Below are positions 7,119 to 8,785 of a DNA stretch of 10,226 bases, piece by piece. A model generated the notes under the pieces. That model was not told where the DNA came from. It made no database searches and worked only from the letters and a program-made list of their open reading frames with translations. The stretch spans positions 1-10,226 of the IMG/VR virus record IMGVR_UViG_2681813004_000013; one strand, written 5' to 3'. A program made the translations under genes and the position numbers. This DNA comes from a virus. Lineage: Duplodnaviria > Heunggongvirae > Uroviricota > Caudoviricetes. The first letter of the stretch is position 1. Each line of letters begins with the position of its first letter.

Positions 7119-7248
7119 AACAAAACCCTATGAACTTTTAACATTTCCCCTTAAGGGGTCCATCCCTCTTCTCCCTGCGCGCTACTTAAGTATTTTTGAT
7201 TCTATTCCGGCACCTTCAAAAAGCTCAAACGTCTTGAAAATAAACAAC

Positions 7249-7270
7249 AAAAAACCCGCCGAAGCGGGTT
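7249..7270 (-). terminator. Rho-independent terminator of the hok mRNA
   Basis: The minus strand reads AACCCGC-ttcg-GCGGGTT followed by TTTTGTTGTTT. Confidence 0.8.
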
Positions 7271-7338
7271 AAGTGCGGGTGCGTTGAGGATGCCTGACAC
7301 ATCAGAGGTGGCGAGGGATTTCTCCCCCGCCGGGTCTC

Positions 7339-7494
7339 TTACTCCTCAGGTTCGTAAGCTGTGAAGACAGCGACCTCCGTCTGGCCGGTTCGGATTCGTA
7401 CCTCGCAGAGGTCTTTCCTCGTTACCAGTGCCGTCACTATGACGGTTAAACAGATGACGATCAGGGCGATTAACATCGCCTTTTGCTGCTTCAT
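7339..7494 (-). CDS. hok: Hok-family type I toxin (51 aa), HokD/RelF-like
   Basis: My own translation is MKQQKAMLIALIVICLTVIVTALVTRKDLCEVRIRTGQTEVAVFTAYEPEE. This matches my recollection of E. coli HokD (RelF). An AAGGAG SD lies upstream. The ORF is below the ORF-track size cut-off. Confidence 0.95.
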   Translation of the reverse strand: MKQQKAMLIALIVICLTVIVTALVTRKDLCEVRIRTGQTEVAVFTAYEPEE

Positions 7495-7550
7495 AGCCTG
7501 CTTCTCCTTGACCTTTCGGTCCGTAAGAGGCTAATCTCTATGTGTCGCAT
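7491..7550 (-). CDS. mok: mok-like leader ORF (19 codons) ending in an ATGA overlap with the hok start
   Basis: ATG CGA CAC ATA GAG ATT AGC CTC TTA CGG ACC GAA AGG TCA AGG AGA AGC AGG CTA TGA. GAGG lies 8 nt upstream of its ATG. The region aligns with the R1 mok start (…AGCCUCUUAC…CAAGGAGAAG…). It is much shorter than R1 mok. Confidence 0.45.
   Translation of the reverse strand: MRHIEISLLRTERSRRSRL
7508..7537 (+). promoter_or_regulatory. sok antisense promoter
   Basis: The plus strand has TTGACC (7508..7513), an 18-nt spacer, then TAATCT (7532..7537). The context taagaggcTAATCT parallels the R1 sok promoter region as I recall it. Confidence 0.5.
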
Positions 7551-7610
7551 AGATATGGCCTCAGATTAATGTTAAGCGTCTTGCCGGACGCGTAATGTTA
7601 ACTGGGGCTT
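7544..7610 (+). ncRNA. sok: Sok-like antisense RNA (approximate ends)
   Basis: It would start about 7 nt after the -10 and be antisense to the mok SD and start codon (7550..7548 and upstream). The 3' end is not well defined: the hairpin GCGTC-ttgccg-GACGC at 7576..7591 lacks a clean U tract. Confidence 0.45.
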
Positions 7611-7668
7611 TTCTCTGTCTGCCTTACGGCGGCATGCCCGAGGCAGACAGCCTCAAGCACCCGCAGCA

Positions 7669-7696
7669 ATTCTACTTAACTCTCGCTTTACAGCAA
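7669..7696 (-). promoter_or_regulatory. hok mRNA promoter
   Basis: The minus strand has TTGCTG (7696..7691), a 16-nt spacer, then TAGAAT (7674..7669). The predicted 5' end, GGGUGCUUGAGG (7662..7651), is complementary, with one bulge, to CCUCAACGCACCC near the 3' end (plus-strand 7277..7289). This is the fold-back-inhibition pairing typical of hok mRNAs. Confidence 0.5.
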
Positions 7697-7737
7697 ACCG
7701 TTTTTGCCCGATATGGGAATTCCCATACGGAATGAAT

Positions 7738-7842
7738 TCAGTTCCCCAGGCGATCCATCAAAAACACAACCAGGCAGTAAACACCCACAACAGCAATAAC
7801 AGCCAGAGCGCCTTCCATTACCAGTGAAATATCATCCGACAT
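7738..7842 (-). CDS. 34-aa single-pass hydrophobic peptide (unannotated small ORF)
   Basis: My own translation is MSDDISLVMEGALAVIAVVGVYCLVVFLMDRLGN. A strong SD, AAGGGAGGG, lies 3-4 nt before the ATG. A candidate promoter lies upstream (TTGCTA, 18-nt spacer, TATATG, within about 7870..7905). I recognise no family. Confidence 0.5.
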   Translation of the reverse strand: MSDDISLVMEGALAVIAVVGVYCLVVFLMDRLGN

Positions 7843-7951
7843 ATTCCCTCCCTTGGTGTGAATTCCGGCGAACGTTTTTACCCCCACCGACAAATAACAT
7901 ATACTAGAAAAGCAATAGCTATAGCAACGCCTGCAAATGCATCGGGCCGGC

Positions 7952-8785
7952 TCATTGGTGCGCCCCCTGTATCGCTTCTACTGCGATCTGACTGGCGTAT
8001 TTGTTAATGGTAACGATAAGTTCTTGCTCGGCCTCATCCAGACAACCACCGATACCTCGCCTGTCACCTTCAGAAGCATCGAAATCTGCACGAACCCTGG
8101 CGACCTTCAGGATTGCGGACAACACCTCATCAGGGATTGCCGGAGAGTTGGTTGACGTTTCCGAGGTTATCCGAAAATTATTGGTTGACGAATTCTTATT
8201 TTCCCGAAAGTTTTCGGCATGAAGCATGGCGGTGTTATACCCATCCGCGAAAATCTCTGCTTCTTCGTTATTCAGTTCGGCACCAAGTTTAAGCGCAATA
8301 GCTTTTGCCATTGAGGCGGTAATTTGATGGCATGGCTGACGTCCATGAAGCATGGCGTCGCTCCGCTCTATGCCATCCAGCGCAATTCGAAGCGCATGAA
8401 TTGTAGTAATGCTATCGTTTGGGGTTATTCCGTATCGTTCGAATACAGCGATATGGTTGCGCATAATCGCAGGTGTAAGCTCTTTGTAAGCAAGAGCAAG
8501 AGGTCCAGATACATCGTTCAGCACTACCGTCATCGGTGAGGCGGCGTAGACTTCAATAATCCCAGTATCAATAGGCCATTCCCCATCCTTGATATAGTAA
8601 CTTGTTCCGTCAACTTGCTGTTCTACAATGTGGAAAGCACCTATTGGTTCTGCTTCCAGCGATGCCAGTGCAATTTTGAATAACTCGCCCTCTACCCGTG
8701 CCATCCCTGAATTGGGGTAGCATTTCGCAATCGCTATTTTTAATTTGGCTTCTTCGATTAATTTCTCTTTGGTTAATTCAGTCAC
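7952..8785 (-). CDS. Hypothetical 277-aa protein
   Basis: This is a long ORF with protein-like composition. It has an N-terminal helical segment ending ALASLEAEP, reminiscent of Ead/Ea22-like prophage proteins, and an S/T/N-rich linker (NKNSSTNNFRITSETSTNS). It has a GTG start at 8785. No confident family assignment. Confidence 0.7.
   Translation of the reverse strand: MTELTKEKLIEEAKLKIAIAKCYPNSGMARVEGELFKIALASLEAEPIGAFHIVEQQVDGTSYYIKDGEWPIDTGIIEVYAASPMTVVLNDVSGPLALAYKELTPAIMRNHIAVFERYGITPNDSITTIHALRIALDGIERSDAMLHGRQPCHQITASMAKAIALKLGAELNNEEAEIFADGYNTAMLHAENFRENKNSSTNNFRITSETSTNSPAIPDEVLSAILKVARVRADFDASEGDRRGIGGCLDEAEQELIVTINKYASQIAVEAIQGAHQ

Follow-up and report, generated by a model that had tools for sequence, protein, structure and literature searches.

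The window, by which we mean the whole stretch of 10,226 nucleotides analyzed here, carries on its minus strand, downstream of a gene for a 277-aa protein, two tiny ORFs for hydrophobic peptides of 25 and 34 aa, followed by a hok toxin gene with its mRNA leader and the sok antisense region (Table 1). The frame of 34 codons runs from the ATG at 7842 to a TGA at 7740-7738 and encodes MSDDISLVMEGALAVIAVVGVYCLVVFLMDRLGN, a peptide with a single strongly hydrophobic 19-mer (residues 11-29, Kyte-Doolittle value 2.72). Among the 88 ATG-initiated ORFs of at least 25 aa in the six frames of the window, just this one and hok exceed a value of 2.5 over 19 residues. The coordinates, the Shine-Dalgarno (SD) sequence and the hydrophobicity all agree with the original prediction of an ORF with a strong SD and one predicted transmembrane helix. 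Comparison of the folding of the initiation region with that of shuffled sequences, for both subtypes of the gene described below, revealed no excess structure (z = +0.96, -0.75 and -0.27). The same prediction had assigned to the ORF a plausible promoter of its own, which a sigma-70 consensus scan did not bear out: there was no match on the minus strand between the 277-aa gene and the 34-aa ORF, and inspection by eye yielded at most a weak candidate, TTGCTA-15 nt-TAGTAT. For the same ORF in Escherichia coli O157:H7 Sakai, termed XECs145, BPROM predicted a promoter 173 bp upstream of the start used in that study, with a low score (LDF 2.13) (PMC5597208). The only sigma-70-like match within 7200-8100, TTTACC-17-TATACT, lies on the plus strand (7877-7905), is directed towards the antisense of the 277-aa gene and falls within chance expectation. 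A terminator scan returned a single find, the hok terminator at 7270-7253, and none for the 34-aa ORF.

Table 1. Features of the small-ORF/hok locus. Positions refer to the window, except in the last row.
Feature	Position	Strand	Remarks
Hydrophobic 25-aa ORF, MSRPDAFAGVAIAIAFLVYVICRWG	7878-7955	-	ATGA overlap of its start with the 277-aa gene's stop
G5 run, end of the 25-aa ORF	7881-7885	-	G6 alleles join both small ORFs as one 74-aa frame
Left 11-bp direct repeat, GGGTAAAAACG	7873-7883		Flanks the cassette of SD, ORF and palindrome
Shine-Dalgarno, AAGGGAGGG (AAAGGAGGG in most alleles)	7846-7854	-	3 nt 5' of the ATG; kept in all sampled copies
Gene for 34-aa small membrane protein (ECs_5710/XECs145 family, type A)	7738-7842	-	Stop codon included; ORF reading, PGAP CDS, dN/dS, RIBOseq
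Palindrome region	7708-7730		Perfect 16-mer TATGGGAATTCCCATA at 7712-7727; with its flanks, a one-base-deleted form of the 22-bp CGATATGGGAATTCCCATATCG
Right direct repeat (GGGCAAAAACG in the window)	7699-7709		Homology with cassette-less hok loci begins here
hok promoter (inferred)	7669-7697	-	-35 TTTGCT 7697-7692, 17-nt spacer, -10 TAGAAT 7674-7669
hok mRNA leader and sok antisense region	7492-7662	-	Rfam RF01794, 105.9 bits, E = 9.6e-25
hok (HokD-type) toxin gene	7339-7494	-	Pfam HOK_GEF, 1.2e-23; PHROG 251; PGAP: hokD
Type-B ORF, examples at other loci	L004 2498-2587; L087 3016-3105		Also at L102 and L104

The hok/sok module is the paradigm of type I toxin-antitoxin systems, and O157:H7 has over a dozen copies of it. 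Because the Rfam leader model begins at 7662, the hok mRNA is expected to start ~75 nt past the stop codon of the 34-aa ORF; the aligned hok promoter of phage Tritos, TTGGCG-17-TAGAAT, was called by the consensus scan. A mok-like leader ORF of the window (7494-7553, minus strand) is out of frame with hok, and its TGA overlaps the hok ATG (CTATGAAG); in Tritos, HannyBb and 933W, a 70-aa mok frame forms an in-frame N-terminal extension of hok. The Rfam family isrK also matched the 3' region of hok and its terminator (7249-7330, minus strand), below threshold (30.5 bits vs a gathering score of 50, E = 2e-4).

The 34-aa gene had been described as unannotated, which turned out to be incorrect. RefSeq/PGAP calls the identical 105-nt CDS, on DNA 99.5% identical to the window, as hypothetical protein WP_001278459.1; other alleles are WP_001278460.1 and WP_001278454.1, and the annotation was present in 60 of the 60 RefSeq records sampled evenly down the ranking. 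In O157:H7 Sakai, the gene is ECs_5710; it belongs to prophage Sp6 and immediately precedes the mok/hok gene ECs_1520. Translation has been reported as well: the supplements of a 2017 RIBOseq study of uninduced Sakai list the ORF as the novel gene XECs145, with an alternative upstream start (PMC5597208). In LB, its transcriptome RPKM is 79.1, its translatome RPKM 346.1, its RCV 4.35 and its coverage 0.99, values to which reads from the several near-identical copies of the ORF in Sakai may contribute in common; the study classes XECs145 as 'real' and predicts an inner-membrane protein with one transmembrane segment (PMC5597208). Literature searches turned up no main-text mention of the peptide, its WP accessions, ECs_5710 or XECs145; the peptide appeared solely in these supplements.

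The ORF region was detected at 1,469 places in 674 of the 5,426 complete E. coli genomes, with 90-100% identity, and in 403 IMG/VR contigs; all the fetched or sampled copies of the subtype found in the window (hereafter type A) are intact. The original prediction called for a comparison of synonymous and non-synonymous changes across prophages, and this spoke in its favor: for 11 unique alleles, the Nei-Gojobori dN/dS is 0.17 in frame, well under the 0.77 and 1.25 of the shifted frames, and 5, 7 and 17 variable columns fall in codon positions 1, 2 and 3, respectively. Taken together, the intact copies, the frame-specific dN/dS and the published RIBOseq data demonstrate that the ORF is a genuine protein-coding, translated gene under protein-level purifying selection, and the proposal of a small phage membrane protein is upheld to that extent. 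At one locus (L093 3029-3240, E. coli O55:H7 TB182A), the small ORF lies in a 107-bp tandem duplication in which the second copy has a TTG start and no SD; PGAP annotates both copies.

Profile searches with the 34-aa peptide against Pfam, NCBIfam, PHROG and PADLOC gave no match, in line with the earlier statement that it does not resemble Hok or other toxins; in particular, it does not score as a member of HOK_GEF (PF01848), a family that the neighboring hok matches at 1.2e-23. When 1.84 billion representatives were searched exhaustively with phmmer, seven matches came up, all of them close relatives in the peptide's own family, so the peptide is not a fragment of a larger protein, and a protein search with the extended frame of 51 aa likewise returned close relatives only. 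Neither the family scans nor the exhaustive search yielded a homolog of known function. A tblastn search of 50,697 phage genomes failed to detect any copy of the window's subtype; all that it identified, in the phages Tritos, Evi, mEp460_ev081 and HannyBb, was a diverged subtype with 50-57% identity to the window peptide over residues 7-34. At the two loci inspected, those of Tritos and HannyBb, the diverged ORF is again located just upstream of hok.

This diverged ORF, which we denote type B (MLVLKCALAIAAVMAIYCLAVVLMDRLSD), encodes 29 aa and has a conserved GTG start preceded by an SD of the form AGGAGG or GGGAGG; an intermediate allele (P0013, L094) bridges the two types. The type-B segment is present in 1,734 of the 5,426 E. 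coli genomes, with no annotation under it, and 106 of the 107 fetched copies are intact. Its dN/dS is 0.39 vs 0.74 and 0.65 out of frame, and the codon-position variability is 6/7/15. Furthermore, 98 of 108 type-B copies share an upstream footprint, TTGAAT/TTGAAG/TTGCTG-17 nt-CATATT, ~45 nt before the start. Given that this TTGnnn-17-CATATT signature is kept across four or five leaders that have otherwise diverged, the sequence pattern points to a promoter of type B's own. The distance from the stop of the small ORF to the start of hok is, in most copies, 243-246 nt for type A and 210-212 nt for type B. Locus L174 has a 27-aa ORF followed by the type-B ORF and then by the hok promoter, which makes types A and B positional equivalents. 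Collectively, these genes make up a narrow family of two subtypes that occupy the same slot, between a hydrophobic ORF of 25-27 aa and the hok promoter.

The original prediction of a perfect 16-bp palindrome with no U tract after it was accurate on both counts. The perfect 22-mer CGATATGGGAATTCCCATATCG is found in 57 of 91 sampled copies and the one-base deletion seen in the window in 26; in seven copies, the palindrome is degenerate without compensatory changes. In 200 shuffles, there was no match to the palindrome even at up to three mismatches. It occurs once in the window, and each locus in 1.7 Mb of related DNA likewise has it once, invariably right behind the ORF. Of the two roles originally offered for it, operator or RNA-stabilizing hairpin, the single copy per locus rules out a dispersed or repeated operator, and an RNA hairpin, with folding energies from -12.8 kcal/mol (window) to -14.5 kcal/mol, is a possible role; an intrinsic terminator was rejected for want of the U tract. 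Because the palindrome is degenerate in some alleles and absent from type B, an essential role appears doubtful. It may stabilize the 3' end of an RNA, or it may be the mark of a recombination junction. In the window, ~165 bp containing the SD, the 34-aa ORF and the palindrome lie between two copies of GGG(T/C)AAAAACG, at 7883-7873 and 7709-7699, and the matches of cassette-less hok loci begin at query positions 391-396, that is, at 7710-7705 of the window. Phage 933W has a single copy of the repeat and no cassette, and its 25-27-aa ORF abuts the hok promoter directly. The palindrome is part of the type-A cassette, and neither hok nor the sister subtype requires it.

Linkage of the small ORF to hok is strong. 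Type-A ORF and hok are contiguous in about 660 of the 676 E. coli records (~98%), which bears out the adjacency part of the original proposal of a pairing with the hok locus. Type B is linked to hok in 87 of about 99 evaluable copies, and the ORF-hok junction is kept while the upstream contexts are very diverse. Functional pairing, the other part of that proposal, is not supported and is in part contradicted. A hok of this type occupies 10,972 places in 4,727 genomes, compared with 674 genomes for the 34-aa ORF; with that many places, about two thirds of the hok copies have neither small ORF. Among 72,556 plasmid records, eight encode the 34-aa peptide. Conversely, the ORF persists without hok. 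At L022 and L056, hok is broken by an insertion and the small ORF is intact; at L098-L100, the ORF is intact and hok/sok has been swapped for a 214-aa and 408-aa PAPS-reductase/DUF3440 pair; at L087 and L103, which represent about 300 genomes, a DUF1971 gene stands in place of hok, again next to an intact ORF. A component of hok/sok would be present wherever hok is and lost along with it, and the 34-aa ORF does not follow this pattern.

Several details of these replacements deserve mention. The break at L022/L056 lies at the hok Shine-Dalgarno (GGCAAGGAGA|TGTATGGG...), ~235 nt past the ORF stop, and the inserted element is probably an IS. The pair at L100 (3392-5247, minus strand), found also at L098 and L099, shows weak BrxP/DndC-like matches and may be a defense module; the pair is described both as convergent and as divergent. 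Of hok, just a remnant of the -10 region is left at L098-L100. In PPompW phages (L090 1400-1560, Stx2a phage), a gene for the adherence factor paa/adfO has replaced the body of the ORF, sparing its last ~15 nt together with the palindrome and hok.

The hydrophobic ORF of 25-27 aa is found upstream of every type-A copy and, in addition, in 933W and at L174. Its product follows the pattern M.(W/R/L)P(E/D)AFA...(I/V)CRW, its dN/dS is 0.34 vs 0.71 and 1.48 out of frame, and it is absent from the PGAP tables everywhere we sampled. In two diverged lineages, L098/L099 and L100, the G5 run at its end is G6 (L098 1120-1135; L100 3070-3085), which fuses the two small ORFs. An AlphaFold (AF2) model of the 74-aa fusion, of modest confidence (pLDDT 69.5, pTM 0.41, alignment of two sequences), consists of a helix at 3-35, a break at TKGGN and a second helix at 41-73. 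The linker between the two ORFs has six alleles, too few variants for a test of selection. It is tempting to speculate that G5 alleles could also yield the 74-aa product, by a -1 slip of tRNA-Gly on GGG|UAA, and hence two isoforms per locus.

What, then, could the 34-aa peptide do? Phage morons are accessory genes that have been inserted among the core genes of lambdoid phages and are expressed on their own. The explanation that we favor, and consider fairly probable, is that the gene encodes an accessory inner-membrane peptide of lambdoid prophages that probably works with the upstream peptide of 25-27 aa, and that its tie to hok is physical, not mechanistic. Under this scenario, a single-pass inner-membrane peptide of 34 residues, whose gene lies in the early-right (nin) region of lambda-like E. 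coli prophages, would be made in the manner of a moron product, from its own or from read-through transcripts, with efficient translation presumably driven by the open, strong SD. It would act in the membrane through helix-helix association. The upstream peptide is the likely partner because the pair amounts to a split two-helix protein of 74 aa that is fused in some lineages; the 34-aa peptide may also act on a membrane protein of the host or the phage. The helical moment of conservation is like that of shuffles, with no clustering of the conserved residues on a helix face, and therefore no interaction surface can be claimed for the peptide. The adjacency to hok would reflect tight physical linkage at a hot spot of recombination and insertion rather than participation in the hok/sok mechanism. 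Such a small phage membrane protein may act, for example, in exclusion or in the modulation of lysis.

The principal competing explanation is that the peptide, alone or with its partner of 25-27 aa, is a protein-level modulator of Hok, such as a membrane 'immunity' factor or a co-factor that adjusts pore formation by Hok in lysogeny or upon induction, in what would be a three-part locus. In most copies, both subtypes lie 25-55 nt upstream of the hok promoter; the peptide and Hok are both single-pass membrane peptides with a conserved Cys, and the ORF, like the hok mRNA, is expressed in uninduced lysogens. Moreover, the preservation of the ORF-hok junction next to widely varying upstream contexts means that the very high linkage could reflect function rather than proximity. 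However, the ORF is missing from most hok loci and hardly ever found in plasmid records, it is intact where hok has been replaced or disrupted, and hokW/sokW functions as a two-part system (PMC8621323), so we regard modulation of Hok as rather unlikely. The more specific version, in which each of the two tiny ORFs (25-27 and 29-34 aa) encodes one half of a two-helix membrane protein acting on Hok as an immunity factor or co-factor, strikes us as decidedly unlikely.

A second small membrane toxin, as originally suggested, either of the type I style or a holin-like peptide of lysis timing made upon prophage induction, is very improbable. It is true that in size (34 aa), hydrophobicity (2.72 over 19 residues) and possession of a single helix the peptide is similar to type I toxins, that by its context it belongs to an operon read from the early-right promoter, and that the Tritos-type locus has a weak promoter-like antisense site. 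This site, however, is within chance expectation (four such sites found vs 1.9 expected), and for the window's subtype the consensus scan revealed no antisense promoter across 7738-7842 and Rfam gave no match within the ORF at E <= 1, in addition to the lack of PADLOC, Pfam and PHROG matches. The SD is strong and unstructured, and ribosome occupancy in normally growing cultures is high (RCV 4.35), unlike the translational silence in growing cells, through a sequestered SD or a structured mRNA, of a type I toxin. The open initiation region, the high occupancy and the missing antisense signal are the opposite of type I toxin hallmarks. As for holins and pinholins of the two-helix class, the gene is located outside the lysis cassette, in the nin region upstream of Q, and matches no such PHROG or Pfam family. 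Finally, the frame might be non-functional as a protein, and the DNA or RNA conserved because it serves the hok promoter from upstream, because it forms a hairpin or simply through recent common descent. Indeed, most copies are 90-100% identical, so that much of the conservation is shared ancestry, and the palindrome has its center ~60 bp ahead of the inferred start of hok, a distance at which promoter-upstream elements can exert an effect. But the synonymous excess is frame-specific in two subtypes, the SD and the start codon persist in spite of leader divergence, the ORF is covered by ribosome footprints, and hok promoters of the 933W type function without this DNA, which makes the non-coding explanation extremely improbable.

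The significance of these observations is that a conserved, translated membrane peptide stands at the hok promoter in roughly one out of three prophage hok copies matched among E. coli genomes, and is a well-defined candidate for asking whether additional protein partners exist at prophage hok loci. If the peptide does modulate Hok, a protein component would be added, in prophages, to the textbook RNA-controlled hok/sok system; if it is unrelated to hok, it is one more small membrane protein of prophages. The analysis also exposes gaps in annotation, namely the sister subtype (~1,700 E. coli genomes), the upstream ORF of 25-27 aa and the one-base change in a G-run that turns two peptides into one.

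Among known systems, the type I toxins ZorO, Ldr and Ibs of O157:H7 are likewise short, hydrophobic and multi-copy in that strain, but the 34-aa gene has no evident cognate sRNA and its SD is not sequestered; the peptide is not among the families described in the main text of Fozo et al. (2010; PMC2887945). With Hok/Gef (PF01848), its same-strand neighbor, it shares the short, single-helix membrane peptide with a conserved cysteine, whereas the HOK_GEF match, the mok-like leader ORF, the folded leader, the antisense RNA and the periplasmic tail are all missing and, unlike hok, it is translated in growing cells. Like a moron, the cassette is small, sits between core nin genes and is flanked by 11-bp repeats; it is present or absent in otherwise similar, collinear phages (933W is without it) and is expressed in the lysogen (uninduced Sakai). 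It differs from morons in lacking an intrinsic terminator of its own, given the missing U tract of the hairpin. As for a promoter, type B keeps its footprint in 98 of 108 copies, and the window's subtype has no consensus match. A further comparison is with the small inner-membrane proteins of E. coli (<=50 aa), a class found via comparative genomics and models of ribosome-binding sites (Hemm et al. 2008, as cited in PMC5597208). The searches found no sequence relationship of the 34-aa peptide to any named member of this class, and it differs from them in being prophage-borne, multi-copy and confined to E. coli/Shigella, yet it has one predicted transmembrane helix, a ribosome-binding site, evidence of translation and conservation at the protein level and, like these proteins, it is a short product with one hydrophobic helix, translated from a strong ribosome-binding site, whose annotation was missed or came late.
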